Positions 1,803 through 30,726 of a stretch of DNA of 64,000 nucleotides are shown here, piece after piece; positions within the stretch are counted from its first letter, which is position 1; every line of letters begins with the position of its first letter. The notes under the pieces were generated by a model. That model ran no database searches and had not been told where the DNA came from. It saw nothing but the letters and a program-made list of their open reading frames with translations. Made by a program: the position numbers and the translations under genes. Origin of the DNA: Minisyncoccia bacterium (GTDB lineage: Bacteria > Patescibacteriota > Minisyncoccia > UBA6257 > 2-01-FULL-56-20); assembly GCA_050008535.1 (NCBI GenBank), contig JBEKML010000001.1, forward strand, positions 391,050 to 455,049, given 5' to 3'.

Positions 1803-2297
1803 ATGGCGCCGGCGGAAAAATTGAAGATCGGTTGGTTTTCGTTCTCCTGCTGCGAAGACAACACGATCGTGATGACGGAGGTGATGAACGACCATTGGGC
1901 CGAGTGGAAAAAGAAATTTGAATTCCGGCACGCGCGGGTTTTGCAGTCAAAGAACGTGATGGATGAGTTTGATATTGCTTTTATTGAAGGCGCGGTCGCC
2001 TCGCCCGCGCAGGAAGAAAAGTTGAAAGACATCCGGAGGCGGTCAAAAAAGCTCGTGGCGATCGGCGCGTGTGCGGTGACGGGCCTGCCATCCGGCCAGA
2101 GAAACTCTTTCACCGACGCGCAAAAGGAAGCGATAGAATTTCTGACCGCGCGGTTCGGCGCACTGCCGAAGGTGCTTAAGGTTGCGGATGTGGTCACAGT
2201 TGACGCCGAAGTGCCGGGCTGCCCGATGGATCCGCAGAACTTTCTCAAGGTCCTTGAGAGCGTCGTGGCCGAGCTTGAGAACAAAATAATTCCATAA
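1803..2297 (+). CDS. [NiFe] hydrogenase small subunit, minimal (Oxidored_q6/NuoB-like, proximal-cluster-only type)
   Basis: 164 aa. KIGWFSFSCCEDNTIVM..GACAVTG..VPGCPMDP: four Cys (CC...C...CP) arranged as in the proximal 4Fe-4S site of HoxY/NuoB-like small subunits. Lies directly upstream of the large subunit. Confidence 0.8.
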   Translation: MAPAEKLKIGWFSFSCCEDNTIVMTEVMNDHWAEWKKKFEFRHARVLQSKNVMDEFDIAFIEGAVASPAQEEKLKDIRRRSKKLVAIGACAVTGLPSGQRNSFTDAQKEAIEFLTARFGALPKVLKVADVVTVDAEVPGCPMDPQNFLKVLESVVAELENKIIP

Positions 2298-2301
2298 TCC
2301 C

Positions 2302-3594
2302 ATGCACACGTTTGATCTCACGATGGAGGGTATCACGAAGGTAGAGGGCAGCGCCGGGCTTTCATTGCACGTGGAGGAGGGGAAAGTGACCGATGTGAAG
2401 TTCGCGATCACCGAATACAAGCGGTTCTTCACCGAGGCGATGAAGGGGAAATCGGTCATGGCCATTCCGCAGCATCTCGCGCGGATCTGCGGCACCTGCT
2501 CCAACGCGCACCTCATGTGCAGCATTGAAGCGTGCGAACACGCCTTGGGGATAGAACCCACCGCGCAGACAAAAACGCTCCGCGCGCTCACCATGCACGG
2601 CCTTATGATCCGCGACCACGCCCTACACCTTTATCTTTTTTCAATGCCCGATATTTTCGGCAAGGATGCGTTCCTTGATTTTGACGAGAACGTGGAGGCG
2701 GAGCACCAGTTGCTGCACGACGGGTTTGGCGTGAAGGGCGCCGGAAATTTCCTCGCGACGCTCGTCGCCGGGCGGAGCGTCCACGCAGTGTATCCAACGA
2801 TCGGCGGGTTCCTCAAATTCCCCGATGAAGCGGGCGTCGCGGAGGCGATCAAAAAACTGGAATCCGTCCGCCCCGCAGCGCTCCGGCTCATAGAAATTTT
2901 CAAAAACGCGCCGTTCCATTTTGATCGCAAGACGCAGTTCATGGCGCTCGTGCCGGATGGAAGCTACGGCTACATAGACGGCACTATTATCACGAGCAAG
3001 GGGGAGGTTTTTCCCGAGCGGGAATTCCACAGGCACTTGGAGCAGGTTGTGCTCCCGTATTCACAGGCATCGGCGTATCTTTATGGCGGTGAGGGCTATA
3101 TGGTGGGCGCGCTCGCGCGGCTCAGCATTGCAAAAGACAAGCTGCACCCGAGAACAAAGGAATCACTCGGCGATGTTCTGGATCTTTTCCCCTCCACCGA
3201 CATTTTTTACAACAACCTCGCGCAGGCGATAGAGATATTACATTCTATCGATGAATCAATAGATATTTTGAAGAACAATAAATTTGTGCCGGAGCCGATA
3301 ATAAAAGTTCCCAATCGCGAGGCCACGGGCGTGGGCGTTGTGGAAGCCCCGCGCGGCACGCTCTATCACAAAGTGGTGATCGGCGCGGACGGCCTGGTGA
3401 AAGAAGGGGAGGTAATCGTGCCCACCGGCCAGAACCAGGTGAATATTGAGAAGGACATCGCGACGCTCGTGCAAGGACTTTTACCCGACACGCCAAAAGA
3501 AAAAATAGAATTTGAAATAGAGAAGCTTGTCCGCGCCTACGATCCCTGCATGAGCTGCGCGGCGCATTTCCTCAAGGTGAAGTGGGACGCATAG
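2302..3594 (+). CDS. [NiFe] hydrogenase large subunit (group 3-like)
   Basis: 430 aa. N-terminal RICGTCSNAH (L1 CxxC) and C-terminal DPCMSCAAH (L5 CxxC-H), followed by an 8-aa extension (FLKVKWDA). Confidence 0.9.
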   Translation: MHTFDLTMEGITKVEGSAGLSLHVEEGKVTDVKFAITEYKRFFTEAMKGKSVMAIPQHLARICGTCSNAHLMCSIEACEHALGIEPTAQTKTLRALTMHGLMIRDHALHLYLFSMPDIFGKDAFLDFDENVEAEHQLLHDGFGVKGAGNFLATLVAGRSVHAVYPTIGGFLKFPDEAGVAEAIKKLESVRPAALRLIEIFKNAPFHFDRKTQFMALVPDGSYGYIDGTIITSKGEVFPEREFHRHLEQVVLPYSQASAYLYGGEGYMVGALARLSIAKDKLHPRTKESLGDVLDLFPSTDIFYNNLAQAIEILHSIDESIDILKNNKFVPEPIIKVPNREATGVGVVEAPRGTLYHKVVIGADGLVKEGEVIVPTGQNQVNIEKDIATLVQGLLPDTPKEKIEFEIEKLVRAYDPCMSCAAHFLKVKWDA

Positions 3595-3619
3595 ACAGGT
3601 GCGCCCCATTCGCTGAATA

Positions 3620-3648
3620 TTGACAATATATAGATATTACCTTATTAT
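3620..3648 (+). promoter_or_regulatory. sigma70-like promoter (TTGACA-17-TATTAT) plus strong SD (AAGGGAGG) for the UPF0182 gene
   Basis: ttgaca atatatagatattacct tattat; aagggagg lies 7 nt before the ATG at 3740. Confidence 0.45.
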
Positions 3649-3739
3649 ATGGCTGTCCATAAGGACAAAGCTGTTCTTTCCAAACCGAAAAAGATTTCAT
3701 TTCGGCATTGAATTTCTGGAAGAAAAAGGGAGGTAAGAC

Positions 3740-6613
3740 ATGTTGGGATTCCTGATGTTCCTGACGTGGTTCGTTCTCTCCATCCCCCCGCTCGGGCGGG
3801 CGGTATGGAAACTGATCAAACTCTACCGGGACGAGGACCGGGACGAGGAACCGCTCAAGCGGGCATACCGCTCCTTGGGCCTCACTATTCTGTGGGCCGT
3901 GCTCGTGATCGTTGGCTTGTGGGCCCTCGCCTGGCTGATGGACCTGCGCGTCGAATCCCTGTGGTTCGCGGACGCGGGCTATGCCGGACGCTTCTGGACC
4001 CAGTTCAACACCGAGCTCGTCCTCTACTGGATCGGGTTCGTGCTCGCCGGCGCGTTCTGTTTCACGAACGTGACCATGATCGCCAAGCTGAACGCCGGTT
4101 CCAAAACGGCGCAGCGGGTGATCCTCGGAGTCGGCGGGGCGCTCTCGCTTATCGCCGCTAACGTGTTCGGCAGCGTCGCCGAGGGCATTTGGCAGAGATT
4201 GCTGTTGTTCCTGAACGGTCAGCCGTTCGGCAAGCTCGACCCGGTGTTCTCAAAGGACGTCGGGTTCTATGTCTTTACCATGCCGTTCATCGACGGTCTG
4301 ACGTCGTTCGCGTACTGGCTGATAGGCCTGACCATGATCGCCTGCTTCGCTTTCTACGCGGTGAGGTATGGCGTAGCCAAGGCCGGCTCTTGCAACAACT
4401 ATGATTTCGGGGCCAGCAAGCGCGCAGAGCTCGCGGAACAAGCCGGGGTTGTGCTCAACCACGGCCTCTCACATGTCTCAGCTCTGGGCATCCTGTTTCT
4501 CCTGGACCTCGCAGTCGACACATTCCTGGACCGCTACAAGATCCTGTACTCCACGCACGGCAACGTCTATGGCGCCGGCTGGACGGATCTCAACGTGCGG
4601 ATCCCGGCCTACTGGGGGTTCATGATTGTCCTGGCCATCGGCATCGCGTTCCTCGCGACCTCGGTCCTATCGAAGTCGCACCGCCACACCGTGAAGAATG
4701 CCATCTTCGGTTTCGGCGGGACGCTCCTGTTCTGGCTCTTGGCCGTCGTCATCACACCTGCGATATTCCAATCGGCATATGTAAGCCCGAACGAGTTGCA
4801 GGTTGAGAGGCCCTTTATCCAGCGGGAGATCGACTACACCAGTGCGGCATACGGGCTCGATCGCATCAAACCCCTGGATTTCCCCGTGAAGGACGGCCTG
4901 ACGCGGGCCAATCTGACCCAAGACGCCGAGACCCTGGAAAGCGCGCGGCTCTGGGATTGGCGTGTCCTCCTGGCCACCAACCACCAGCTTCAAGCCTTCA
5001 AGCCGTACTACAGCTTCAAGGATGTGGACGTGGTGCGCTACGATGTCCACGGCAAGAAGGTCCAAGTGCTGTACAGCGGGCGCGAGTTGGACGTGGAGAA
5101 GCTCCCCGAGTCGGCGAAGACCTGGCAGAACATGCATCTGGTCTACACGCACGGCTTCGGCGGCACCGCCAATCCTGTGAACGATTTCACTTCGGACGGC
5201 CTGCCGGATTACTGGGTGAAGGACCTGCCGCCCGTCTCGAGATACCCCGAACTGGAGATGAAGCAGCCTCGCATCTATTTCGGCGAGGCGACCACGAACC
5301 ATGTGTATGTCAATACCCACATGCAGGAATACGACTACCCCGTGGGCGACGGCAACGCCTGGTTCCAGTATGACGGGCCGGCGGGCATTCCGCTCGGCGG
5401 CTTCTTCCGACGACTGTCCATTGCCTGGAAATTCGATGGTTTCTGGAGAACCTGGTCTGAGCAGCTCGGGCCGGAGAGCCGCATTCTGTTCAATCGCGAC
5501 ATCGCGACCCGCACCGAGAAGCTCGTGCCGTTCCTGTGGCACGAGGAGGACACCTACCAAGTCATCGCGGACGGGCAACTGTGGTTCATGCGCGACTTCA
5601 ATTCGGTGACCGAATGGTATCCCTACTCGGCACCGCACAACGGCGTGAACTACATGCGTAATTCGGTGAAGTCGGTGACGAACGCGTATACCGGCAAAAC
5701 CGATTTCTACGTGTTCGAGCCGAACGACCCCGTCATCCGCACCTATCAGGCGATCTTCCCGGGACTTTTCAAGCCAATGTCCCAGATGCCTGCATCGCTT
5801 CGCAAGCATGTCAGGTACCCGCAGGGGCTGCTTGAGGTCCAGGGAGACATGTATGCCTGGTATCACATGAAGGATGCCACTGCCTTCTACAACAAGGAGG
5901 ACATGTGGCAGTACGCCAAGCAATTCTCCCCGAGCATCAACAAGCCGGCGCAGGTTGAAGCGTACTATCTCGTGATGTCCTTGCCCGATCGCCACTCGCC
6001 GGAGTACGTGCTGGTACTGCCCTTCACTCCGAAGTCCACCGACGCGGAGCACCAGCGCAATAATCTGGAGTCCTGGCTCGCCGCCCGCTGTGACGGCGAC
6101 CACTATGGGGAGCTCATGCTTTACCGATTCCCCACGACCAAACAGGTTCAGGGTCCGCTCCAGGTTGGGATTAGGATGAACCAGGACGAGACGCTATCCA
6201 AGGATTTCAGCCTCTGGAACCAGCAGGGTTCCAAGGTGGTCCTGGGCGACATGCGTGTCCTGCCTCTTTCCGACCACCGATTGCTGAACGTCCAGGCCAT
6301 CTATCTGGAGAGCGAGGGCGCGAAAATGCCTCAGCTCAAGTACGTGGTTGCCGCCTCCGGCGACCAGATGGTCTACGAGAAGACGTTCTCCGCTGCACTG
6401 GAGCGGTTAATCGGCGCCGGGCCGACGCTCATGCCGCCTCCGGCTACCATCACCGCCGTTTCCGTACCCGCGTCCCTCGACCTGACCCAGGAGATACTGG
6501 GCCGGCTCGACAAGTACTTCGGGTTGCTCCAGCAGGGCAAGTTCTCGGAGGCCGGGAACGAACTCCAGGCTATCCGGGACGAACGGGCCAAAATGAAATC
6601 GACCAAAAAGTGA
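3740..6613 (+). CDS. UPF0182 family large membrane protein
   Basis: 957 aa with an N-terminal multi-TM region and a large soluble part. Recalled similarity to mycobacterial UPF0182 (Rv3193c-like): WF..GY, VYTHGFGG (cf. VYTHGNGF), NYMRNSVKSVTNAYTGKT (cf. SYIRNSVKATVDAYDGTV), HVRYPQGLLEVQ (cf. HLRYPEDLFKVQ), ILFNRD. Visibly higher GC than the flanks. Confidence 0.85.
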   Translation: MLGFLMFLTWFVLSIPPLGRAVWKLIKLYRDEDRDEEPLKRAYRSLGLTILWAVLVIVGLWALAWLMDLRVESLWFADAGYAGRFWTQFNTELVLYWIGFVLAGAFCFTNVTMIAKLNAGSKTAQRVILGVGGALSLIAANVFGSVAEGIWQRLLLFLNGQPFGKLDPVFSKDVGFYVFTMPFIDGLTSFAYWLIGLTMIACFAFYAVRYGVAKAGSCNNYDFGASKRAELAEQAGVVLNHGLSHVSALGILFLLDLAVDTFLDRYKILYSTHGNVYGAGWTDLNVRIPAYWGFMIVLAIGIAFLATSVLSKSHRHTVKNAIFGFGGTLLFWLLAVVITPAIFQSAYVSPNELQVERPFIQREIDYTSAAYGLDRIKPLDFPVKDGLTRANLTQDAETLESARLWDWRVLLATNHQLQAFKPYYSFKDVDVVRYDVHGKKVQVLYSGRELDVEKLPESAKTWQNMHLVYTHGFGGTANPVNDFTSDGLPDYWVKDLPPVSRYPELEMKQPRIYFGEATTNHVYVNTHMQEYDYPVGDGNAWFQYDGPAGIPLGGFFRRLSIAWKFDGFWRTWSEQLGPESRILFNRDIATRTEKLVPFLWHEEDTYQVIADGQLWFMRDFNSVTEWYPYSAPHNGVNYMRNSVKSVTNAYTGKTDFYVFEPNDPVIRTYQAIFPGLFKPMSQMPASLRKHVRYPQGLLEVQGDMYAWYHMKDATAFYNKEDMWQYAKQFSPSINKPAQVEAYYLVMSLPDRHSPEYVLVLPFTPKSTDAEHQRNNLESWLAARCDGDHYGELMLYRFPTTKQVQGPLQVGIRMNQDETLSKDFSLWNQQGSKVVLGDMRVLPLSDHRLLNVQAIYLESEGAKMPQLKYVVAASGDQMVYEKTFSAALERLIGAGPTLMPPPATITAVSVPASLDLTQEILGRLDKYFGLLQQGKFSEAGNELQAIRDERAKMKSTKK

Positions 6614-6668
6614 CACTCGCAGAAGCATGCAGGCCCTCGCTTCCCGGGTGACTCACATCTCATCCAGA

Positions 6669-6706
6669 GCCCTCCATCGCCGTCAGGCGGTCCGGAGGGC
6701 TTTTGC
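6669..6706 (+). terminator. rho-independent terminator after UPF0182 gene
   Basis: gccctcc atcgccgtcaggcggtcc ggagggc followed by ttttgc. Confidence 0.5.
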
Positions 6707-6712
6707 ATAAAA

Positions 6713-6741
6713 AGCCCGCTCCGGCGGCTGGATTCGAACTT
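6713..6741 (+). repeat. isolated copy of the tRNA-Asn 3'-end-like repeat (GCTCCGGCGGCTGGATTCGAAC)
   Basis: cccgctccggcggctggattcgaacttac. Its reverse complement contains a GTTCGAATCC T-loop-like motif but no foldable cloverleaf. Same orientation and core as the 24.7-39.6 kb repeat family. Confidence 0.5.
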
Positions 6742-7123
6742 ACTGCCCACTGAGAAATTTTTCGAGTAAGATAATTATTTTCTGGAGCGCCCCAGCTTCG
6801 TCCATGGCTCCCGGCACGCCGATTATTTTTATTTTCTTGAACTTGCCGAGCTTTTGGAGATATCGGAGGTTCGTGAGCGCGTCAAAATCGTGCATCGTGA
6901 CGCGCGGCACGGCGGCGAACTTTGCAAGATCGTCAAAAACAGTCACTTCGTTGATGCCTTCTACGGTATCAATAATAGTCAGTTCTTCGGGCACGTCCCA
7001 CTCTTCGTTCGGGTCTTTTACTTCAAATTGCACTTGCGGGAATCGTTTCTGAAGTTCGGGAAGGATCCGAAGCGGCAATGAGTCGGCGGGAAGGTCGGGA
7101 TTGCCGAAAACATAAACGATCAT
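6740..7123 (-). CDS. hydrogenase maturation protease (HycI/HybD/FrhD family)
   Basis: Start at MIVYVFGNPDLPADSLPLRILPEL... (127 aa), typical of the endopeptidase N-terminus. The track ORF 6740..7204 extends 27 codons upstream. Confidence 0.7.
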   Translation of the reverse strand: MIVYVFGNPDLPADSLPLRILPELQKRFPQVQFEVKDPNEEWDVPEELTIIDTVEGINEVTVFDDLAKFAAVPRVTMHDFDALTNLRYLQKLGKFKKIKIIGVPGAMDEAGALQKIIILLEKFLSGQ

Positions 7124-7226
7124 ATGCTTTTTATCATATGACGCTACGGGCCGAAGAGCTAATACAACTATTTTAAAGAAAGCGCGCCGTTTCCCGCGGT
7201 CCAAGACAGCTTGGCGGGAAACGGCG

Positions 7227-7679
7227 CTAGGATTCTACTTCTTCGATCTCTACGACCACCCGGCGGTGGAAGTAGACGAACTGGCCGCGCGAGAGGGGGA
7301 GATGGTACTGGTTGACCGCGTTGAGCGTCTCTCCTTCGCAAGCGAGGACTACGACTGTGCCGTTGCTTGCTTCGGCCACTTTGGCGCGGCGCACGCGGCA
7401 CTCGCCTTCGTGGCCGTGGTGATGGTGCCAGAAATCGGCTACCGTGGCCACCGCCCATTGGGCCAGTCCATTTTGGACCGCGTATTCGCGCAATCTCTCG
7501 ACTGCGTTTGGGAAACATCTTTCAAGAAGCGGACACGTCGGTTGCTCGTTTCTTCTGACGAGCTGGTCAAGCTCGATCAGGTCTTTCTCGGCGATCTTCC
7601 AACGTCTCCCATTGGTGACCACCACGCCGGTGGTGGCGCAAGGGAATGTGTAACGGAGGAACAATAGTTCTCCGGTCAT
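7227..7679 (-). CDS. hypothetical protein with His cluster (FWHHHHGHEGEC), co-directional with the maturation protease
   Basis: Start MTGELLFLRY... (150 aa) chosen inside track ORF 7227..7832. No family recognised. Confidence 0.5.
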   Translation of the reverse strand: MTGELLFLRYTFPCATTGVVVTNGRRWKIAEKDLIELDQLVRRNEQPTCPLLERCFPNAVERLREYAVQNGLAQWAVATVADFWHHHHGHEGECRVRRAKVAEASNGTVVVLACEGETLNAVNQYHLPLSRGQFVYFHRRVVVEIEEVES

Positions 7680-7722: not shown

Positions 7723-8454
7723 TCAAATCGTCCGATTCGCCAAGTCGAGGTGGCGTAGCGTGTACTTGCGGAGCATCGCGGCCTCGCGTTCTGTGATGAC
7801 CTCGCAGGGGACACTCCAATGGATGGAAACAAGGTCGCCGGGCTTGATCTGCTCTATGTCGTACTCCGCCTCCAGCCGCCGCGCGAGTTTTTTCTCCGCG
7901 GGCGCGCCGAGAAAAAGTTTTCCGTTGGCATAGAGCAGCGGCTCGGCAAGCACGGTGATCGCGGGACCACTTACGTTTTTTACCCTTCCCCAACTCACGC
8001 GGCACTCGTCTATTTCGGAAAGCGTCCTCTCCCGCTCGCCGCGAGCCGCCTGCAACCAAACATCCAGAACGTGGAACGAATGATGCGGCACGGCTCCCTG
8101 CGCGATTTTTTCTTCAACGAGTGAAAAAGATTTTGCGCCGAGCTTTTTCTTTATTTTCTGGCCCTCAACAAGGTGGTGGTAAAACTTCCGCTGGCCGATA
8201 TTTTCCAAAAGTTCGTTGCCGATCCAGTATGCCTCTACCACGCGGTCATCAAAAGGATCGCGGATGCCGTTCGCTTCCGCGATGTGGCGGAGGTAGGGGA
8301 ACATTGTCTTGAATTGGCTCAACAATTTCTCAAGTCCCGGATCGCTTGCACCCTCTTCAATGTAGGCGCGGATTTCGCTCGCCGCATCCGGGCCGCAATA
8401 ATGGAGCCGGTTCGGTCCGAAAGCATATCGGCTGCAGCGGATGATGCCGTCCAT
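7723..8454 (-). CDS. hypothetical protein (243 aa)
   Basis: Start MDGIIRCSRYAFGPN... chosen inside track ORF 7723..8610. No family recognised. Same strand as 7227..7679 and hycI. Confidence 0.5.
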   Translation of the reverse strand: MDGIIRCSRYAFGPNRLHYCGPDAASEIRAYIEEGASDPGLEKLLSQFKTMFPYLRHIAEANGIRDPFDDRVVEAYWIGNELLENIGQRKFYHHLVEGQKIKKKLGAKSFSLVEEKIAQGAVPHHSFHVLDVWLQAARGERERTLSEIDECRVSWGRVKNVSGPAITVLAEPLLYANGKLFLGAPAEKKLARRLEAEYDIEQIKPGDLVSIHWSVPCEVITEREAAMLRKYTLRHLDLANRTI

Positions 8455-14130: not shown

Positions 14131-14799
14131 GTGATGATTCTCTTCTATAAAATAGGCAGGAACATCGCAGGATGTTTCCGCGGATATTATTTGCTTTTCC
14201 ATATTTTGGCGGCGGCGCTTACGTACGTGCTCGTGGTTTCCGGATTTGATTGGTTCTATTTCACTACGTTGCGGAATACCTCTTGGTATCTTTTTTTGTT
14301 CCCCGCCGCCGTTCTTGGCGCATTTCTGCCGGTCCTCGTGCCCTTGCTCATGCTTGCGATCGGCAAGGTTCGCAACAATCTGAGGAACATAAATGCGGCA
14401 TGGGGGACGGGACAGGCGGCGCTTCTTGGGTTGCTGATCTCTTCTTCCTATAAATTTTTTACCGGCAGGATCCGGCCGCCGTTCTTGCTGACCGCCTCCA
14501 CCCCCGACATAAGCCAGGTATTCAGATTTGGGTTAATGAAGGGCGGAGTGTTCTGGGGCTGGCCTTCCTCGCATACCACAGTGGCCTTTGCGGCGGCAAT
14601 CGCATTGGTAAAACTCTATCCCGAGAACAAACTGGTGAAAATTTTGGCTTTGGCGTGTGCGTGCTACGTGGGGGTCGGGGTTTCGGCCGGCATCCATTGG
14701 TTCTCTGATTTTGTTGCCGGCGCCATCATCGGTTCCGTGATCGGCGTAGTGGTGGGCAACAGTTTTCGCGCGCGGTTGCATGCGCGGGCGGAGCGCTAA
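14131..14799 (+). CDS. PAP2 family phosphatase (membrane)
   Basis: PAP2 motifs KFFTGRIRPP, PSSH, SAGIHWFSD. Confidence 0.75.
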   Translation: MMILFYKIGRNIAGCFRGYYLLFHILAAALTYVLVVSGFDWFYFTTLRNTSWYLFLFPAAVLGAFLPVLVPLLMLAIGKVRNNLRNINAAWGTGQAALLGLLISSSYKFFTGRIRPPFLLTASTPDISQVFRFGLMKGGVFWGWPSSHTTVAFAAAIALVKLYPENKLVKILALACACYVGVGVSAGIHWFSDFVAGAIIGSVIGVVVGNSFRARLHARAER

Positions 14800-14820
14800 G
14801 GCAGCGCCGCAGAACCGGGG

Positions 14821-15348
14821 CTACGCCGCCGGACGTTTTTCCAAGTTGAGATTTACAAACGCCAAGAGCAAGGCGGGTACCATAAGGTCTTTTCTGGTGA
14901 GCGTTCCTCCGGAGAAATACATTACCGGATCGTCTTCGCCGGCCAGGTTCTGGGTCAGAGTATCCATCTTGATGTTATTTTTTTGTATTTCTTCCATCAT
15001 CCACAACGGCACCCTGATGCCGGGAGTAAAACTTTCCACGTGCTTGCCGTCCTTGGTTTGGATGGAAATGCCGATCACGTAATACCACTCGTCCGCGTTA
15101 TAGATAAAACTCAACGAATTCTCAATGCCGATCCCGATATCAACATTTTCGCGATTGAGCGCTTCCGCTGCGCAAGCCCGCGCTCTTTTAAACAACTCTT
15201 CAAATCCAAAGATCTGCGAAGGCAACGACGGGCGAAAGGGACTATCAAGAGCGATGTCCGCCTCAACGCCAAGCTTTTTGATCGCTTCCTCTACGGCTGC
15301 TTTTTTCAGGTCAAAATAATGCTCTGAAGTATAGAAGCCTATCGTCAT
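14821..15348 (-). CDS. inosine/xanthosine triphosphatase (YjjX / DUF84 family)
   Basis: The C-terminal block DDPVMYFSGGTLTRKDLMVPALLLAFVNL matches the recalled YjjX segment [42 protein letters not shown]. Confidence 0.65.
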   Translation of the reverse strand: MTIGFYTSEHYFDLKKAAVEEAIKKLGVEADIALDSPFRPSLPSQIFGFEELFKRARACAAEALNRENVDIGIGIENSLSFIYNADEWYYVIGISIQTKDGKHVESFTPGIRVPLWMMEEIQKNNIKMDTLTQNLAGEDDPVMYFSGGTLTRKDLMVPALLLAFVNLNLEKRPAA

Positions 15349-15369
15349 CTCCGTGATTATATCATTTTC

Positions 15370-16380
15370 TCAACGGGGACTTCCCGGTGGCTGCTGATGC
15401 CTCTTTTCGTAGTTTTCGTGATACCGAAACGCCGCCGGAATGCTTGCGGCTACCGGGAGCGCGAGGAATGCTCCCAGGATCCCGAAAAGACTGGCGCCGA
15501 TTACTACTGCGAGAAAACTTAAGGCCGGGTAGAGATTAAGGGCTTTGTTGTAGATTACCGGGGAGATCACGGCATTTTCGATCTGCTGGTAGACAAGATA
15601 AAGAATGAGTACGGCGATGCCTTTTACCGGAGACAGGGCAAAGGCGATTATAAGAGCGGGTATGGCGCCGATGGTCTGGCCGACCAGCGGGAGCAGGTCC
15701 AGAATGCCCGCAAAAATGGCGAGCGGCAATGCAAAGGGAATTTGTAATGCCAAAAGTCCCACGAATATGACAGCGCTGCAAATGACAGAGATGATCAGAT
15801 TCCCCCGAATGTATTGCCCTGTTACCGTGCCCACTTCCCCGAGAAGTTCCTTAAGCTTGGTTTTCTCTCTGTAGGGGAAAATGCCCAGAAATAAATTGAA
15901 TAATCTTTCTTGGTCATATACGAAATAGAACGTTAAGATGAGAACCGTGATGATCGATAGTACCGTGAACGCGACGCTTTGCGTGGAAGCGAGAATGAAA
16001 GCGGGATGGCTTTGGAGATAGTTCCCGATATTAAAATTTTCTAATGCTTGGGGTGCGAAAGGTAAGTGGCCGATCGTAGCGTTCATGTTGTTTATGAGAT
16101 TAGGAACCTCCGTGCTTAGCTGCGGGATGATCGCAAAACCCAGTATGGCAAGGGGTATAAGAAGAACGAGCAAAACCAAGGATATCGAAAAGATCATTGG
16201 CAACCTCGTCTCTTTATGAACTTTACTTACTATGGGGGAAAGTGCCGCAGCCATAACAAGCGCTATCAAGATATCCACGAGTGCATCAGCGCCTTTCCAA
16301 ACGAGAAGCACTACGATCCCGGTAAGTATGATCCGGCTTAATGCTTCCCAGCTAAAAGGATGGTCTTGTTGATCGGCCAT
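15370..16380 (-). CDS. AI-2E family transporter (UPF0118/PerM-like)
   Basis: 8 TM. Start MADQQDHPF... chosen because a TATAAT lies immediately upstream on the minus strand; track ORF 15370..16467. Confidence 0.75.
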   Translation of the reverse strand: MADQQDHPFSWEALSRIILTGIVVLLVWKGADALVDILIALVMAAALSPIVSKVHKETRLPMIFSISLVLLVLLIPLAILGFAIIPQLSTEVPNLINNMNATIGHLPFAPQALENFNIGNYLQSHPAFILASTQSVAFTVLSIITVLILTFYFVYDQERLFNLFLGIFPYREKTKLKELLGEVGTVTGQYIRGNLIISVICSAVIFVGLLALQIPFALPLAIFAGILDLLPLVGQTIGAIPALIIAFALSPVKGIAVLILYLVYQQIENAVISPVIYNKALNLYPALSFLAVVIGASLFGILGAFLALPVAASIPAAFRYHENYEKRHQQPPGSPR

Positions 16381-16508: not shown

Positions 16509-17060
16509 TTGAGAAGAATCGCTGTTGTCTGTTTCCTGTTTGCGTTCGCGGCGTTGTCTGCCGCGAATGCGACTACTCTGTGGTCTCAACTGTGGGACAC
16601 CACGCCGATTACGCCGCCGGCGATGATAAACGGGATCATCGTTTACGCGGATACCCACACCGGATTGGAGTTCGGTGACGCATTGACAGATTTCAACATC
16701 TCCGGCTGGACGTCGCTGCTGATCAATCCATGGGAGGTCGAAGCATGGGGGACCCCAACGGACACCGTCTTCGATTTCAACGTCAACTTCGGCTCGCCGG
16801 CCAACGCGGCGGGGTACGTGATGTTCGAGTACCTGTACAACGGCCAGTTGGTCGCGCCCGAGACCGGCCCAAACCCGGAGATTTTCTACTACAACGGCGG
16901 GAATGGGGAGTCTCGCGGCCCCGTCACGTACGGCAACTTCTCGTGGCCCGCTCAAGATCCAGACTTCGGGAAGGTCCCCGAGTCCGGGACGGCGTGGCTC
17001 GTCGGTCTGGGGCTCCTGCTCTGGCAGGCTCCTCGCCTCTGGCGCCGTGTCTGGTGCTAG
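16509..17060 (+). CDS. secreted protein with PEP-CTERM-like C-terminus
   Basis: Signal peptide MRRIAVVCFLFAFAALSAANA; C-terminal VPESGTAWLVGLGLLLWQAPRLWRRVWC (PE-x, hydrophobic span, Arg cluster). High-GC segment. Confidence 0.45.
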   Translation: MRRIAVVCFLFAFAALSAANATTLWSQLWDTTPITPPAMINGIIVYADTHTGLEFGDALTDFNISGWTSLLINPWEVEAWGTPTDTVFDFNVNFGSPANAAGYVMFEYLYNGQLVAPETGPNPEIFYYNGGNGESRGPVTYGNFSWPAQDPDFGKVPESGTAWLVGLGLLLWQAPRLWRRVWC

Positions 17061-24667: not shown

Positions 24668-24712
24668 CGCTTTTAATTTTACTGGGCGCTCTGGCGGCTG
24701 GACGATGTGATC
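24668..24712 (+). repeat. tRNA-Asn-3'-end-derived repeat, copy A
   Basis: cgcttttaattttactgggcgctctggcggctggacgatgtga. Its end overlaps the stop of the minus-strand gene 24714..25076. Confidence 0.6.
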
Positions 24713-24713
24713 G

Positions 24714-25076
24714 TTATCCCTTCGCCCACGCAACAATCTCGTCAAGATCGGAGATTGATTTTGGATAGAAGATTTTTTTATGGTTGGCTTCGGCCCATTC
24801 TATCTCCGCAAGTGTCCCGCTTGATTTTTCCCATCCGGGGATTACGACCATAGCGTCGGATGCCCTCTGGAGCATTTGCATATCAAGCTCTTTATAAAAT
24901 TCCTCTGGCGCGGTGGTTCGCAACTCAAACCGTGCTGTGTGAAGATGCGGCCCAAAAAAGCCGACGCCGCGGTTAGCAAGGGCAATCGCAAAACTTTCCG
25001 CCTCGCGAATGTTCTTATCTATATTTCTTAGGTCGCCCCCGCCATAATAAGGCCCTGCGATAAAAACTATCTTCAT
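24714..25076 (-). CDS. DUF4406-like / nucleoside 2-deoxyribosyltransferase-fold protein (120 aa)
   Basis: MKIVFIAGPYYGGG...SGTLAEIEWAEANHKKIF. Only this C-terminal part of track ORF 24714..25868 looks like a real protein. Confidence 0.6.
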   Translation of the reverse strand: MKIVFIAGPYYGGGDLRNIDKNIREAESFAIALANRGVGFFGPHLHTARFELRTTAPEEFYKELDMQMLQRASDAMVVIPGWEKSSGTLAEIEWAEANHKKIFYPKSISDLDEIVAWAKG

Positions 25077-25181
25077 AAGGTCATTATAACAAATTTTACT
25101 TGACATACTATTCCCCGAATCGTACCCTGACCGCAGGTCATCCAATGTCCGAAATACGAGTTTTATGGAAAGGGGGAACCT

Positions 25182-25922
25182 ATGCATCCCAATCTCTCGC
25201 CTGCGCTTAACGCCGCAGTACAAGCAGGAACTGACAACCCCGGCATCGACATCAAGACCCAAGCGAGGGGAACGATGTTTGATGTCGTGAGTGGTCACAC
25301 CAAGTACACCATCGTCGTGGTTGATCCCGAAAAACAGGAGATCGCCATGGTAACCGACAACCACAAGATCTCGGGAACCGACCTCTGGTATTACATGGGT
25401 GCCGGTTGGGGCGGCAGCATGATGAAGGTCGGCTGGATCGTCGTCGGCGCCCAGATGCGGATGCGTCGCCTCTCTGGTGGCGCGATCGAGACAAGCCCCG
25501 TCAAGAACTTCTCGTTGCGCAACGAGCCTGAAGAGGCGAGGCGCATCATGGACGAAGCCGAATCCAGAAGGCCGCAGGTCATGACCGAGGATCAAGAACA
25601 CGACCAGGACGCTCAGTTCGCGGAGGCGGCCGAAGAGATCATCAAGGGAGAGTTTCCGCCCGATCAGCAGGGGTGGATTCGCGAGATGGTCGGTCATTTC
25701 GGCAACATCCCCGCGAAGGCAGTCGTGCTGGGGGTTGTTTCTCAAGCCCAGAAGCACGGCAAACTGGATAAGGCCAAGCAACTCCTCGAGCGCGACTGGG
25801 AGAGAGACTGGCGCTTCCAGCCTCCATATGCGGCAGGCGATCCCGAGTTCATGCCGCTCAACGCTCACCGCTGGAACGCACTCTACCGCGAGCTCGGGGT
25901 TCCGCTGCCGAGCCAGGAGTGA
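25182..25922 (+). CDS. hypothetical protein (246 aa)
   Basis: ORF with plausible composition; no family recognised. Confidence 0.5.
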   Translation: MHPNLSPALNAAVQAGTDNPGIDIKTQARGTMFDVVSGHTKYTIVVVDPEKQEIAMVTDNHKISGTDLWYYMGAGWGGSMMKVGWIVVGAQMRMRRLSGGAIETSPVKNFSLRNEPEEARRIMDEAESRRPQVMTEDQEHDQDAQFAEAAEEIIKGEFPPDQQGWIREMVGHFGNIPAKAVVLGVVSQAQKHGKLDKAKQLLERDWERDWRFQPPYAAGDPEFMPLNAHRWNALYRELGVPLPSQE

Positions 25923-26009
25923 ACACCTCGTTTCGGTTCGCGATCAAGATTTCAAATCAGGCGTCCGTCTCGGGATCCTCCGGGGCGCGGCGCCTTTTTC
26001 GTTTGGCCC

Positions 26010-26040
26010 CTCGGTCTGCTGGACGACGTTAGAACCTGTT
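26010..26040 (+). repeat. repeat copy B (internally deleted variant)
   Basis: ctcggtctg|ctggacgacgttagaacctgtt joins the flank-like CTCGGTCTG directly to the CTGGACGA..GAACCTG core. The stop of the minus gene follows 8 nt downstream. Confidence 0.55.
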
Positions 26041-26047
26041 TGGTGGC

Positions 26048-26485
26048 CTAGAACTTTGAATAAATGAGGAGGGAAATGATGATAAGGATAAGATACGGTA
26101 ACCCTACGTGCAAAAGCAGCATATTGCGGACGGCGTTTTTTTTGTCATGAACGGGAAGATTGGGAACCCGAAAATCTTTCGGCAGATCTTTCCCGGAAGA
26201 AAGCGCCTGTAGGGCGTGTTGGACTTCGTTGCGCCGCTTCTTATAGTCGGTGCGGTAGGTTTTGTTATATCCGTCGAAAAACCAGAAAATGAGGGGGACG
26301 AGGGCGCCGATGAGAGCTATTTGGCCCTGCTTGGATTGGAATGCCCAGCCCGCCAGGGCGACCCAAAGGGTTACCGCCCACGTTTTAGTGGTTATAGAAA
26401 GCTGGTCATACTTGTCCACCTGATTTTGCGTAAGGGAAAGCTCCGCCTTCAAAAGATCGTAACGGATGTCGGTGCGGGTTTCCAT
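26048..26485 (-). CDS. hypothetical membrane protein
   Basis: 145 aa with 3 predicted TM segments. Confidence 0.5.
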   Translation of the reverse strand: METRTDIRYDLLKAELSLTQNQVDKYDQLSITTKTWAVTLWVALAGWAFQSKQGQIALIGALVPLIFWFFDGYNKTYRTDYKKRRNEVQHALQALSSGKDLPKDFRVPNLPVHDKKNAVRNMLLLHVGLPYLILIIISLLIYSKF

Positions 26486-26529
26486 TCCTTAAGCATACCA
26501 CTAGACCTAGCTCATCGCTTCTATTGGTT

Positions 26530-26575
26530 GGCTTTGTCCGATACTTTTACTAGCTCCGACGGCTGGACACGGCTC
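26530..26575 (+). repeat. repeat copy C (with flank TTTGTCCGATACTTTTACT)
   Basis: ggctttgtccgatacttttactagctccgacggctggacacggctc, immediately followed by the stop of the minus gene 26577..26906. Confidence 0.6.
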
Positions 26576-26576
26576 C

Positions 26577-26906
26577 CTACTTGAGAGCGGGGAATAATTT
26601 GAGTATGTCCAGCGGATTGACGCCTTTGACCAGCGCGGCGATTACCACAATCAGAAGCGCTACGCCAAGATAATCGCTCCATTCCCACGTTATTTTGCCA
26701 TTATCAATCACAACCTTCAGAGTCTGCGCTCCTCGCCCTTGTGTCCCTTGGCTTTGCATCCTTCGGGTTGGCCAAAAGCCGACTACGGCGACCAGCACCA
26801 AAAGCAAGATCGCAATCAGGGGGGTTATGGACACGAAGCTGGAAAGTAGCCATAAAATAATGGCGGCAATCCCTGCACGGGAAGCGGAAAATTTTATTTT
26901 GCCCAT
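26577..26906 (-). CDS. hypothetical membrane protein
   Basis: 109 aa, TM-rich. Confidence 0.5.
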   Translation of the reverse strand: MGKIKFSASRAGIAAIILWLLSSFVSITPLIAILLLVLVAVVGFWPTRRMQSQGTQGRGAQTLKVVIDNGKITWEWSDYLGVALLIVVIAALVKGVNPLDILKLFPALK

Positions 26907-26950
26907 GTATTGCTAAAAGAGAATCAGATATAACCTCGGCCTTTGAGATT

Positions 26951-26992
26951 AGTATACCATTTGCTCCGGCGGCTGGACGATGTGAGAACCTG
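26951..26992 (+). repeat. repeat copy D (near-consensus)
   Basis: agtataccatttgctccggcggctggacgatgtgagaacctg, directly followed by TATAAT and the rdgB ATG (27005). Confidence 0.65.
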
Positions 26993-27004
26993 TATAATCA
27001 ATAT

Positions 27005-27610
27005 ATGAACAAGAAGCTGCTTATTGTCACTCACAATAAGGGAAAATTTCCCGAAATAATCTCTGAGCTTAAGGGCGTAGCTTTTGATTTTTTAAATTTA
27101 AACGATATTCCCTCTCTCCCGCCAAAATATGAAGTGGAGGAACCCGCGATGACCTTTGAAGGAAATGCCATTATCAAGGCCGTGATACTTGGCAAGAAAA
27201 CGGGACTTATAACTCTTGCCGACGATTCGGGGCTCGAAGTCGACGCATTAAATGGAAAACCCGGAATTTATTCTGCGCGTTATGCGCCAGGAACCGATGA
27301 AGATCGCTATCGAAAGCTTCTGGGCGAACTTAAGAATGTTCCCGACGATAGGCTCGGCGCTCAATTTCATTGCGTCGTTGCCATTTATGATCCTGCCACC
27401 GATAAAATCCGCACATGCGAAGGCGTCTATCGAGGGAGAATTATTCGAGCACCGAGAGGAACGAATGGTTTTGGCTACGACCCTATCTTTTTCAACGAGC
27501 AGCTAAACAAGACAAACGCAGAAATGACGGTTGATGAGAAAAATTCAGTAAGCCATCGCGGCACGGCATTGAGGAAGGCCCGCGAGATTTTAGAAAAAGA
27601 ATTTAGCTAA
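27005..27610 (+). CDS. rdgB: dITP/XTP pyrophosphatase (Ham1/RdgB family)
   Basis: LLIVTHNKGKF..E, ...DDSGLEVDALNGKPGIYSARY..., FGYDPIF..., HRG (Ham1 motifs). Confidence 0.85.
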   Translation: MNKKLLIVTHNKGKFPEIISELKGVAFDFLNLNDIPSLPPKYEVEEPAMTFEGNAIIKAVILGKKTGLITLADDSGLEVDALNGKPGIYSARYAPGTDEDRYRKLLGELKNVPDDRLGAQFHCVVAIYDPATDKIRTCEGVYRGRIIRAPRGTNGFGYDPIFFNEQLNKTNAEMTVDEKNSVSHRGTALRKAREILEKEFS

Positions 27611-27613
27611 TTT

Positions 27614-27645
27614 CCGCTCCGGCAGTTAGACGACATGAGAACCTG
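27614..27645 (+). repeat. repeat copy E
   Basis: cgctccggcagttagacgacatgagaacctg. Confidence 0.6.
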
Positions 27646-27725
27646 CGTGACTAAGAAATGATACTCAAACTGCCGCTGCTTGTTACTGCATCGGTCCCGC
27701 AACTGGAGCGTGGTATAATATAAAC

Positions 27726-28844
27726 ATGAAAAAATTCATCCTTGGTGTCGGTGTGGTTGCGGTGCTTGTGCCGTTCGTGTCGTTCGGGGCGTACAAAAGC
27801 GCAGGGAAGAGCGTGGTTTTGAATGCAACGCAGCCGATAAACGACAATGCCTATGTTGCCGGCGGAAACGTTATGACTTCAGGCGTCATAAACGGTGATC
27901 TTCTCGCGGCGGGTGGATCGGTATTTGTATCCGGGAAAGTGGTCCGGGACGTCATGGCGGCGGGAGGCAACGTCACGCTTTCGGGAGTTTCCGCGGAAGA
28001 CGTCCGCATCGCGGGAGGCAATCTTAACGTCAGCGCCGTCTTGAGCGGCGAGCTCATGGCTGGCGGCGGAGAGGTTATCGTCACGCCGGACTCCAGGATC
28101 ACGAAGGATTCTGTGGTCGCCGGGGGATCGGTAACCTTCAATGGTGACGAGGCCGGAAATCTTGAAGTGTACGGGGGATCGGTCTACATCGGCGGTACGG
28201 TTGAAAAGAATTTGACCATTAAAGGATCGAAGGACATCACGATCGGTTCGGGCGCAGTTATTAAAGGAAATTTGGATTACACAAGTGTGAACGACGCCAC
28301 GATCGAAAGTGGTGCGCGGATCCTTGGCGCAAAAACGTTCCATAAGGTTGAGGCAAGCGCGCCAACAAATGTAGCCGGGCCTCTCGCTGCAGTTTTCACT
28401 TTCTGGTGGATCGCAAAGTTCCTTATGGCCCTTCTTGTCGCGTATCTCCTTTGGTATCTTTTCCGAAGCGATATGGTTGCGCTCATTACGGAAGCCGGAT
28501 CGCATTTCGGCAGGGAACTGCTCCGCGGTTTCATCTTTGCCGTCGTAATGCCCATAGCGATCATCATTGCCTGTGTTACCGTGGTCGGAGCTCTGGTTGG
28601 CGGCATTGCGGCGCTCGTCTATGCGGCACTCATCCTCCTCGCGTTCCCCGTCGCGATTCTCGTTGTTGCGTCACTTTTGAGGAAACGCAGGACCGATCTC
28701 CACTGGTACGGCATTCTCCTTGCAGCAGTGATCCTTGAGATCGTCGCGCTCATTCCGTTCGTTGGCTGCGTTGCGTGTCTCATCATATGTCTCGCCTCCC
28801 TCGGCGCATTGCTCAATGTTTTGCGCCGCCGATTTGCACGGTAG
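27726..28844 (+). CDS. bactofilin-like beta-helix repeat protein with C-terminal multi-TM domain
   Basis: Signal/TM N-terminus, repeated A(A)GGNV/GGSV units typical of the bactofilin/CcmA fold, then 4 TM helices. Confidence 0.6.
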   Translation: MKKFILGVGVVAVLVPFVSFGAYKSAGKSVVLNATQPINDNAYVAGGNVMTSGVINGDLLAAGGSVFVSGKVVRDVMAAGGNVTLSGVSAEDVRIAGGNLNVSAVLSGELMAGGGEVIVTPDSRITKDSVVAGGSVTFNGDEAGNLEVYGGSVYIGGTVEKNLTIKGSKDITIGSGAVIKGNLDYTSVNDATIESGARILGAKTFHKVEASAPTNVAGPLAAVFTFWWIAKFLMALLVAYLLWYLFRSDMVALITEAGSHFGRELLRGFIFAVVMPIAIIIACVTVVGALVGGIAALVYAALILLAFPVAILVVASLLRKRRTDLHWYGILLAAVILEIVALIPFVGCVACLIICLASLGALLNVLRRRFAR

Positions 28845-28964
28845 GTAAAACTAGACGTTATACGCCAAAGCATAAATCTAATCGGCGCGAAAATGAGTAA
28901 GGCGCACATCCAGCCGGGCTGGGCGTGCGCCTTAGAATGGTACGAATGCGAACTGCGGCCGACG

Positions 28965-29333
28965 CTAGCGGCCGCTGGATGCGGCTTGTGAGTGCCACCG
29001 CCCCCTCTTTCGCCAGCTTGTTGACTCTTGCCCGGCGGGCGCGTATGCCTGGTGGTTCAGGCCGTGCGCATCGTGTCCGGGTTTTGGAATGTGGGGGATG
29101 CCGGCGACCTGTTCCGGACGGGCGCCGTCTGTCCGGAATAACATCCCACCGATCCATTCGAAGACGGCGGACGGGTCAGCGGCGCTGCGCTCCGCAAGTC
29201 TCTTGTACCGCTTGCGGCGAGCGAGGTAATGCTCCGGCCCTCGTTGCGGGTTCGCAGCGGTGCCTATCGGCTGTTCGGAAGCCGAACGGAAGAACTGTCC
29301 CATACCTACTCCTTCCTTGTGGTATTCGCCCAC
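28965..29333 (-). CDS. hypothetical protein (questionable)
   Basis: ORF in a high-GC patch; alternative start MGQFFRSA at about 29303. Confidence 0.25.
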   Translation of the reverse strand: MGEYHKEGVGMGQFFRSASEQPIGTAANPQRGPEHYLARRKRYKRLAERSAADPSAVFEWIGGMLFRTDGARPEQVAGIPHIPKPGHDAHGLNHQAYAPAGQESTSWRKRGRWHSQAASSGR

Positions 29334-29397
29334 AAGTTCTGGACGCTAAAACAATAGTACTCCTCCAGTACTGCCGCATCAAGCGATGCCGAATCCA

Positions 29398-29443
29398 GTG
29401 CTCTTACTCGGTGCTCCGGCGGCTGGACGATATGAGAACTTGT
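29398..29443 (+). repeat. repeat copy F
   Basis: cttactcggtgctccggcggctggacgatatgagaacttgt. Confidence 0.6.
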
Positions 29444-29578
29444 CTACTCACCTAAAATCGTCAACGTTGCTGATGATCTTAGGTGGATGGGCAGAGGCAG
29501 CATGAGTGATGCTGCGTGCCCATTGATGGGCGTGTTTCGCGTTAGCGGCAATCCGCGGGTTGCGGCTAATGGGGCCGG

Positions 29579-30097
29579 TCATTCCGTGCCCTTGCCCAGA
29601 AGTTTTAAGGCGCGGGAGATCCTCCTCTCGGTCATCGCCTTGTCGTGGGTGTGCGCGAGGTATGCAGCCCGAAGCGGTTCGGTCCCGACGAGCCTAATGG
29701 CAAAAGCGTCAGCCATCTGATCCTCATATTCTCTCTCGCGTGCATTCGGGTTGGGATTGCGAGCATTTCTCGCAATATGCCCAAGTTCGTGGGCGAGGGC
29801 TCCAATGAGAGCGGCGTTTGAAAAGCGGGTGAAGGTGAAGCGTGAAGCGACGATGGTCGTTGTCTTCCGTCGACGTGATGCCGCCACAAAAGAACGTTCG
29901 TCTCCTTCCTGCACGCAAAGCTGGATCGGCATCGCCTGACTGCCGATTTTGAGCTGTAGTGCTTCGAGAAGCGCGTACGCGCGATGTCCGCTCTCCAGAA
30001 GAACACGTCCTGGAAATTCTTGGGTGCATTCGGCTGTACCGGCGTGGGCGGAGTTTGCGGAAAAAAGGAGAAACACCAGAGCGGCCAACTTTTTCAT
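29579..30097 (-). CDS. secreted HExxH zinc metallopeptidase-like protein
   Basis: Signal peptide MKKLAALVFLLFSANSAHA; HELGH motif. Confidence 0.55.
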   Translation of the reverse strand: MKKLAALVFLLFSANSAHAGTAECTQEFPGRVLLESGHRAYALLEALQLKIGSQAMPIQLCVQEGDERSFVAASRRRKTTTIVASRFTFTRFSNAALIGALAHELGHIARNARNPNPNAREREYEDQMADAFAIRLVGTEPLRAAYLAHTHDKAMTERRISRALKLLGKGTE

Positions 30098-30136
30098 CTT
30101 AAGTCTCCTGCCCGAAGTTTAGCACAAGGCCTATGT

Positions 30137-30625
30137 CTAATCCATTATTTGCGCAAAAAGCACCACATAATTCTTGCCGTATGCTTTGGCGCACTTCGGA
30201 CAAGTGGTATAGGAAAAATATAATTTTTTTAATCCCTTGCCCTTGCTTTTTACATATTCTTTCATCTCCTGCGCCCACTTGCCGACATTTTGATAGGGGC
30301 CTTCAAATACTTTAGTAAGAAATGTTCCTGAAAGTGTTGCCATTTGCGCGCCCGGAACACCTCCGGAAGCATCAATGTAAATATCCGCACCCCAGAGAGA
30401 TTTCTCATCAGTTAACATTAATTGCTGTGGCGCTTTGGCGCTTGCTTTCTCGATCAGTTTCATATTCTTGACCACCTTTCTCCCCATGTTAATGGGAATG
30501 TGCAAAAAGCTGGTGACATGATCCTTCACAAAAATTTTATCTTTCCAGATGATCTTTTTGTCCCGCCACGGTTCAGGATTAAACGGCTCGCAGCAACCGG
30601 TTGATTTTATTGTTTGATTAGCCAT
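30137..30625 (-). CDS. hypothetical protein (162 aa)
   Basis: ORF with normal composition; no family recognised. Confidence 0.5.
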   Translation of the reverse strand: MANQTIKSTGCCEPFNPEPWRDKKIIWKDKIFVKDHVTSFLHIPINMGRKVVKNMKLIEKASAKAPQQLMLTDEKSLWGADIYIDASGGVPGAQMATLSGTFLTKVFEGPYQNVGKWAQEMKEYVKSKGKGLKKLYFSYTTCPKCAKAYGKNYVVLFAQIMD

Positions 30626-30667
30626 ACCCTTATTCTACCAAAAAACCGCCCGATTAACGATTTTTAT

Positions 30668-30700: not shown

Positions 30701-30726
30701 TTATTTGTTATAATCAAAAATATTGA

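Follow-up and report, generated by a model that had tools for sequence, protein, structure and literature searches.

Several systems described earlier come close to the locus reported here. Genomic islands of the Prochlorococcus type, with repeated tRNA 3′ fragments, were reportedly described by Coleman et al. in 2006. Integron cassette arrays are a second point of comparison. A third is the Islander principle, by which an intact tRNA gene (tDNA) and a displaced cognate fragment in the same orientation delimit an island (PMC4383910). We analyzed a 64,000-nucleotide (nt) stretch of contig JBEKML010000001.1 from a Minisyncoccia bacterium, referred to below as the window. Near its left end, a gene for a UPF0182 family membrane protein lies between hydSL, the genes for a [NiFe]-hydrogenase, and a HycI-like gene for a candidate hydrogenase maturation protease. 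The UPF0182 gene, with its own promoter and terminator, forms a unit of about 3.1 kb, and a 22-nt fragment of a tRNA-Asn gene, called copy M, stands beside its right end. The unit is an insertion into a junction that is empty in two relatives and holds other genes in three more, and its composition is atypical for the host. We consider it somewhat probable that the unit was acquired at the spacer between hydL and the HycI-like gene and that copy M is a tRNA-Asn relic next to it.

The UPF0182 unit splits hydrogenase gene neighbours

Relatives were located through the hydrogenase large subunit. Homologues of hydL numbered in the hundreds at 72-92% identity, and those with names belonged to Patescibacteria, Paceibacterota, Parcubacteria or Vogelbacteria. 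Five relatives were compared with the window, L089, L090, L091, L092 and L093, with hydL identities of 85%, 84%, 77%, 92% and 87%, respectively; their flank orthologues are 69-88% identical to those of the window. In L089 and L091, a leftward POR gene is followed by rightward hydS and hydL and then by leftward HycI-like and DUF6390 genes. There is no UPF0182 gene at this junction, and the stop codons of hydL and the HycI-like gene are 34 nt apart in L089 and 15 nt apart in L091. Since one closer and one more distant relative share the empty junction, the 3.1-kb unit is an insertion that split hydSL from the HycI-like gene in the lineage of the window, as an earlier note on this DNA had proposed from the arrangement of the genes. 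The junctions are identical in three independent assemblies of this genome (L001-L003), with copy M in each and the same gene order and, therefore, they are not an assembly artefact or a chimera.

The direct succession of hydL and the HycI-like gene, for which the note had suggested looking in relatives, holds for L089 and L091, but the other three carry other genes. A P-type ATPase gene and a 175-aa gene separate the two in L090, sufCBD lies downstream of hydL in L093, and an unrelated minus-strand gene does so in L092. HycI-like orthologues, 63-77% identical to the window protein, adjoin hydL in L089 and L091 and lie two genes further on in L090. The best NCBIfam matches of hydSL, the left flank of the insertion, are the alpha and delta subunits of sulfhydrogenase (group 3b-type). 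The spacer 3′ of this group-3b-type hydrogenase is thus a recurrent point of gene gain with variable cargo.

The promoter, Shine-Dalgarno (SD) sequence, terminator and copy M were all found where the earlier note had placed them, around an open reading frame (ORF) of 957 aa. The promoter (TTGACA-17-TATTAT, 3620-3648) agrees with the consensus at 11 of 12 positions. Only two sites this good occur in the window on both strands, compared to 0.2 expected from Markov simulations. The SD sequence, AAGGGAGG, is at 3726-3733, with the ATG 6 nt downstream. Region 3595-3739 has no counterpart 3′ of hydL in L089, L091 or L092. The terminator hairpin has a folding energy of -27.3 kcal/mol (z = -5.3) and is followed by TTTT; a simple terminator scan missed it because there are only four T residues. 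Most of the UPF0182 genes examined in the clade of closest homologues also have their own sigma-70-like promoter. A homologous terminator is common to three of these genes (L209, L004 and L005), but that of the window is not homologous to it.

The UPF0182 gene is richer in GC than its neighbours, as the note had stated (0.599 vs 0.547). The excess lies almost wholly at third codon positions, with GC1 and GC2 normal. GC content at third positions (GC3) was compared with that of the 42 other window genes of at least 150 aa, with the repeat array left out. The UPF0182 gene reached 0.824 against a mean of 0.655 (standard deviation 0.063, maximum 0.788; z = 2.7), and its amino acid content under host codon usage predicts 0.663. 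The excess is even along the gene and over nearly all amino acids. Karlin codon bias B, at 0.428, exceeds that of every other window gene encoding 300 aa or more (those with 480 aa or more have values of 0.19-0.27), and the dinucleotide-signature distance (delta*) peaks in the 3-kb segment 3501-6500 (122 vs 64±25). GC3, codon usage and dinucleotide signature, therefore, all mark the gene as an outlier within the window. No gene in L089, L090 or L092 has a GC3 above 0.74, and the closest UPF0182 homologues have values of 0.63-0.71, at times above and at times below those of their neighbours. The signal is therefore one of neither the host lineage nor the gene family, and the synonymous-site composition of the gene is atypical for the host. 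High GC3 as a trait of the UPF0182 gene family was considered and rejected, because the homologues in L209 and L211 differ from their neighbours by +0.02 and -0.08. The second-highest GC3 (0.788) was seen in a 183-aa ORF with no Pfam match at 16509-17060 on the plus strand, which has a B of 0.51 and may be foreign too.

Table 1. Features of the UPF0182 insertion, its flanks and the related tRNA-Asn sequences in the window
Feature	Position	Strand	Basis or remark
[NiFe]-hydrogenase small subunit gene hydS	1803-2297	+	Pfam Oxidored_q6
[NiFe]-hydrogenase large subunit gene hydL	2302-3594	+	Pfam NiFeSe_Hases
Upstream non-coding part of inserted unit	3595-3739	+	promoter, ~85-nt 5′ untranslated region, SD
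UPF0182 family membrane protein gene, 957 aa	3740-6613	+	PF03699, E 6.5e-239
Intrinsic terminator of UPF0182 unit	6666-6704	+	hairpin 6666-6703, then UUUU
Copy M, 22-nt tRNA-Asn(GUU) 3′ fragment	6718-6739	-	GCTCCGGCGGCTGGATTCGAAC
Divergent HycI-type maturation protease candidate, 127 aa (right flank)	6740-7123	-	remote homology
150-aa gene, no Pfam match	7227-7679	-	ORF
DUF6390 gene	7723-8454	-	Pfam; syntenic with HycI-like gene in L089, L090, L091 (66-78% identity)
Array of 12 tRNA-Asn-3′-derived repeats, one to three genes between copies	24686-37685	+	nhmmer profile; consensus GCTCCGGCGGCTGGACGATGTGAGAACCTGTTT
Resident tRNA-Asn(GUU) gene	40388-40460	-	ARAGORN; Rfam 68.7 bits

The protein encoded by the unit covers positions 3-770 of the 770 in the PF03699 profile (795.5 bits vs a gathering cut-off of 27). 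UPF0182-type NCBIfam models matched it with E values of 1e-194 to 5e-208, all under their equivalog cut-offs. Eight hydrophobic segments of 19 aa were found within residues 1-339 and none in the long hydrophilic part beyond, so the protein would have about seven or eight N-terminal transmembrane segments and a large extracytoplasmic C-terminal domain. This is the layout described for UPF0182 proteins (bioRxiv 10.1101/2025.11.14.688347), and the full-length PF03699 match is shared with the named members MSMEG1959 of M. smegmatis, Rv3193c of M. tuberculosis and cgp_0896 of C. glutamicum. The window protein differs in having only about 35% identity to named homologues, in belonging to a separate clade and in carrying an added C-terminal extension past the Pfam domain (residues 827-957). 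Actinobacterial UPF0182 has been tied to FtsH/YccA membrane-protein quality control (bioRxiv 10.1101/2025.11.14.688347). By family membership, a similar function may apply to the window protein, the link being reported for actinobacteria alone. Strings like GCCGCCTCCGGCGACCAG occur twice within the 3′ coding end of the gene (6350-6369 and 6433-6452). They resemble GCCGCCTCCGGCGGACCAG in the hydL/HycI spacer of L089 (L089 11288-11306), which may be a coincidence of GC-rich sequence.

The gene on the right flank had been called hycI, and this name holds by remote homology only. The protein scores below the cut-offs for PF01750 (15.1 bits vs 23) and TIGR00072 (12.8 vs 47.45), and its match to NF045519 is weak too. 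A HMMER search with the protein found 533 representatives. G7, D14, D52, H78 and D81 never vary in an alignment of 92 family members, 31 of which match PF01750 (E ≤0.01) and no other family. D14, D52 and H78 may represent an acidic-acidic-His metal-binding triad. The alignment, the PF01750 matches and the kept position by hydL support a divergent maturation endopeptidase at this place. Profile searches of PDB sequences with the protein gave no HycI match, and a single-sequence AlphaFold2 model was too poor to use (pLDDT 53). The part of the claim that made these genes one operon is doubtful. Between the HycI-like gene and the DUF6390 gene are the 150-aa gene and a hairpin of 14 perfect base pairs (7184-7227) and, therefore, a single operon is not assured. 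The hairpin, formed by the inverted repeat GCGCCGTTTCCCGC / GCGGGAAACGGCGC, lies on the HycI-like side of the 150-aa gene and is probably a terminator that divides the supposed operon. L089 and L091 lack the 150-aa gene.

On the other side of the hydrogenase genes, a tRNA-like element was observed at 1680-1756 on the plus strand, 47 nt 5′ of hydS. It scores 33.4 bits with the Rfam tRNA model, has no ARAGORN call and is flanked by an inverted repeat (1667-1674 / 1751-1758). The element is kept in L092 (2201-2276) at about 85% identity, where ARAGORN calls it tRNA-Ala(TGC). The two versions differ by two double (compensatory) changes, with the acceptor stem and the T stem each holding one. The whole spacer of about 350 nt that holds the element is missing in L089 and L090.

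Copy M and the tRNA-Asn-derived repeats

Copy M touches the stop codon of the minus-strand HycI-like gene, and shuffled sequences gave no chance matches to it. It is an exact copy of the T loop, 3′ T stem, 3′ acceptor strand and discriminator +1 of a common tRNA-Asn(GUU) allele. The exact 22-mer was found in 115 metagenome stretches. In 88 of these it lies inside complete tRNA-Asn(GTT) genes and, therefore, copy M is the segment from the T loop to the 3′ end of this tRNA-Asn allele. About 18 of the 115 are internal 3′ fragments that start in the anticodon loop or the T loop, which are classic forms of attachment (att) sites. T-loop-bounded fragments of the same allele were also found elsewhere. 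In IMG/VR, the array-type repeat was absent and the 22-mer was seen once, within a full tRNA-Asn gene. Compared to the resident tRNA-Asn gene of the window, copy M matches at 19 of 22 positions and has the same orientation. Its allele is not the resident one, since its T stem reads CCAGC rather than CCTGG.

The window also holds an array of repeats derived from the 3′ end of tRNA-Asn (Table 1), two copies of which were found by the profile only (30669 and 26018). The array repeats, copy M and the resident tRNA-Asn are all in one orientation. According to the earlier note, copy M and the array repeats were the same kind of site. This applies to the core, as the first 15 nt of copy M are exactly that of the array repeats and the 15-mer occurs four more times in the array. 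It does not apply beyond the core, where the array copies read CGATGTGAGAACCTG and copy M keeps a canonical T loop. Several array copies carry a flank of about 20 nt, GTCCGATACTTTTACT, that follows the resident tRNA-Asn. The array cargo is a mixture of accessory genes of housekeeping type, including Ham1, NUDIX, GrpB, APH, Na/Ca exchanger and deoxyribosyltransferase-like genes. The GC content of the array region is low, at about 0.48. No integrase domain was found in the array region.

Three copies of the repeat were found in L089. Two of them are direct copies around a 189-aa gene that is located between the enolase and amidohydrolase genes (14683-15620), whereas in L090 these two genes overlap (ATGA, 16520-16530) with no insert. 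One copy of the pair is of the array type; the other is tRNA-like, as copy M is, and is preceded by the GTCCGATACTTTTACT flank. The 15-mer of copy M recurs with one mismatch at these cassette boundaries, and the 189-aa gene with its two repeats looks like a repeat-bounded single-gene cassette. A non-coding stretch of about 115 nt at L089 14691-14810, at the array-type copy, is about 80% identical to window positions 29411-29530, around the copy at 29413, with unrelated genes adjacent. The stretch consists of the repeat, a spacer and a terminator-like hairpin, and the repeat may belong to a longer conserved element. The flanked gene in L089, the empty junction in L090 and the shared 115 nt support the idea that the repeats are att-like sites.

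The earlier note had also taken the 3′ boundary of the unit for an att-like site of the array type. The tRNA origin and the exact 15-nt core of copy M agree with this, but an att role does not follow, as there is a single copy and no integrase or transposase domain between 6.7 and 41 kb. An att-site mechanism at copy M is plausible but unproven, since only one end of the unit carries the repeat.

Origin of the unit and rival explanations

The earlier note had taken UPF0182 to be mostly actinobacterial. Instead, homologues are spread over many bacterial phyla, archaea and Patescibacteria: at 33-43% identity they were found in Nitrospirota, Chloroflexota, Firmicutes, Proteobacteria, Acidobacteriota, methanogens, DPANN archaea and Patescibacteria, and on megaplasmids. 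A scan of GTDB with the single UPF0182 protein gave no match, and an alignment-based scan of GTDB representatives gave no homologue above 43% among the matches listed. The best homologue among 5.8 billion proteins has 65% identity. The window protein sits in a tight clade with P0002-P0011, at 49-65% identity, all of which are from other metagenome contigs. In a neighbour-joining tree, the sister of this clade was Nitrospirota/Thermodesulfovibrionia, and two GTDB ‘Patescibacteria’ sequences were placed elsewhere. One carrier of the clade, L005, belongs to Paceibacterota according to its phosphoglycerate mutase (iPGM) and thereby to Patescibacteria, the phylum of the host. The tree gave no signal of a cross-phylum donor. 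Of the proposed horizontally acquired module, then, the insertion and the foreign composition were upheld, and a donor from another phylum such as the Actinobacteria was not.

The clade genes occupy six further, mutually different contexts: defence-like genes in L004, with a large serine recombinase 8 kb away (L004 16142-17773); an ABC transporter in L005; ribosomal L10/L12 in L007; a convergent tRNA gene in L209, which holds the closest UPF0182 homologue; an adjoining IS21 (IstA/IstB) in L211 (L211 3610-6041); and a 2-thiouracil desulfurase-like gene on the P0004 contig. No hydrogenase lies beside UPF0182 among the clade members examined, and no tRNA-Asn gene adjoins UPF0182 in 85 other loci. 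The differing contexts, together with the genes’ own promoters, suggest that UPF0182 behaves as a mobile, self-expressed unit within these genomes. The window Na/Ca exchanger gene (30727-31770) is inside the repeat array, and its 60% orthologue in L005 (13467-14516) is directly downstream of UPF0182.

These data are consistent with the following history. A self-contained unit of about 3.1 kb, made up of promoter, leader, UPF0182 gene and terminator, would have entered a Patescibacteria (Paceibacteria/‘Minisyncoccia’) chromosome at the short stretch that separates hydL from the convergent HycI-like gene, a recurrent site of gene gain in this lineage. Rather than a long-standing resident, the unit would most likely be an import from a different genome of the same broad lineage, one whose GC3 is higher, and its arrival would be recent enough that its synonymous sites have not yet equilibrated. 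Gain of UPF0182 as such is an ordinary event. Copy M may have had a role in the insertion, as a relic of either recombination or the donor context. It could be a tRNA-Asn-targeting att-type site, the same kind as those spaced along the array at 24.7-37.7 kb. Alternatively, copy M could be what remains of a tRNA gene convergent to UPF0182 in the donor.

Several observations weigh against this history. The native-looking gene at 16509-17060 also reaches a GC3 of 0.788. No direct repeat pairs 3595-3740 with 6614-6765, and a search of the flanks for direct and inverted repeats gave only chance-level matches. The nhmmer profile of the array repeat finds no degenerate copy at the left boundary of the UPF0182 unit; compared by eye, ACAGGT...CATTCG at this boundary is too weakly like the reverse complement of the repeat to count. 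In the ORFs scanned between 3.7 and 41.2 kb, Pfam searches found no domain of an integrase, recombinase or transposase. The window HycI-like gene ends in seven codons unlike those of all orthologues and, therefore, the right breakpoint may lie about 24 nt past copy M. In addition, the empty spacer of L089 holds CTCCGGCGG, a perfect match to the middle of the repeat core, so part of copy M could predate the insertion. Finally, no donor above 65% identity was found and, therefore, composition is the sole basis for a foreign origin, which we infer on those grounds. Other proteins shared with L089 or L090 are as little as 32-56% identical, so 59-65% would fit a fast-evolving orthologue at the L089/L090 divergence and vertical descent with relocation could account for it.

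The last point leads to the rival that survives best, though we find it rather doubtful, in which UPF0182 is native to the lineage and either changed its place in the genome or was lost from this junction in relatives, with a gene-specific GC3 and an unrelated copy M. The closest homologues are indeed in the host phylum. L005 and the window have diverged as much in the Na/Ca exchanger (59.8%) as in UPF0182 (58.8%), and in L004, L005 and L007 the UPF0182 homologue is at or near the top of its neighbourhood in GC3. However, the GC3 of 0.82 is far above that of every homologue, and the homologue in L211 has a lower GC3 than its neighbours, so a bias intrinsic to the gene is not consistently present. 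The gene is also an outlier in codon bias and dinucleotide signature. The empty junction is common to L089 and the outgroup-like L091, which also argues against this rival.

The acquisition reading can be extended, tentatively, to a system that we regard as unlikely. Copy M, the 12 array repeats and the three L089 copies would be recombination sites of an undescribed integrase-in-trans cassette system of Paceibacteria. This system would use a mimic of the 3′ end of tRNA-Asn as its site and shuttle single self-expressed genes, such as UPF0182 and the 189-aa gene of L089, to an array near tRNA-Asn and to secondary sites between convergent or overlapping core genes.

It is improbable that the 22-mer has no part in mobility and is either a decayed pseudo-tRNA stump or a hairpin kept to terminate the HycI-like transcript. 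The minus strand at copy M does read CCGC-CGGA-GCGG, a hairpin, and UUUUUAU directly after the HycI-like stop codon, and GC-rich CCGCC/GGCGG hairpins are present at the equivalent junction in L089 and L090. Yet a match of 22 out of 22 to tRNA-Asn, including the T loop, is needless for a 4-bp hairpin, and the recurrence of the 15-mer in the array and at the L089 cassette boundaries is also against it.

The weakest rival, in which copy M is the displaced fragment at the far end of a 33.6-kb island, or islands, in tRNA-Asn (6740-40387) and UPF0182 is the original neighbour of the tRNA gene, would draw on the position of copy M, which lies 3′ of the tRNA-Asn gene and shares its orientation (19 of 22 matching), on the low GC and 12 further fragments at 24.7-40.4 kb and on the convergent tRNA gene that follows the closest UPF0182 homologue (L209), but is very improbable because there is no integrase in the interval, housekeeping genes such as those for UppS and inorganic pyrophosphatase are inside it, the HycI-like and DUF6390 genes lie just inside and yet are syntenic with hydSL in relatives (adjacent in L089 and L091), and the 3′ T stem of copy M (CCAGC) is not complementary to the 5′ T stem of the resident tRNA (CCAGG), a strand that a crossover in the T loop would leave unchanged. 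A single 33.6-kb island was rejected on synteny, housekeeping content and the failed integrase filter.

Comparison with known systems

The UPF0182 unit is a clean case, backed by synteny, in which a reduced Patescibacteria genome recently gained a single gene. Repeats derived from tRNA-Asn edge variable single-gene units, with no nearby integrase, in at least two genomes that are related. If the repeats are active recombination sites, they would give an account of how accessory genes are exchanged in such small genomes. The repeat family is, thus, an interesting residue that merits its own study.

As in the islands delimited by Islander, a 3′ fragment that starts at the T loop lies in the orientation of its cognate tRNA-Asn with atypical DNA beside it. 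The interval 6740-40387 fits the Islander geometry with a fragment mismatched at 3 of 22 positions, but the UPF0182 unit is outside that interval. The window also differs in having no integrase, a single fragment at the 3.1-kb unit and an intact tRNA gene 33.6 kb away across syntenic core genes.

Integron cassette arrays likewise have single genes or small groups between copies of one short repeat in one orientation, and the repeat-flanked single-gene unit of L089 that is absent in L090 is similar to a cassette. In contrast, the window repeats come from the 3′ end of a tRNA and show no attC-like sequence, and no IntI, attI or common promoter was seen. The array genes are in both orientations, and UPF0182 has its own promoter.

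Compared to islands of the Prochlorococcus type, the units in the window are much smaller (0.4-2.4 kb), and copies of the repeat also occur away from any tRNA gene, namely copy M and the three in L089. The likeness to these islands is that several partial tRNA 3′ ends punctuate a variable region next to a tRNA gene.

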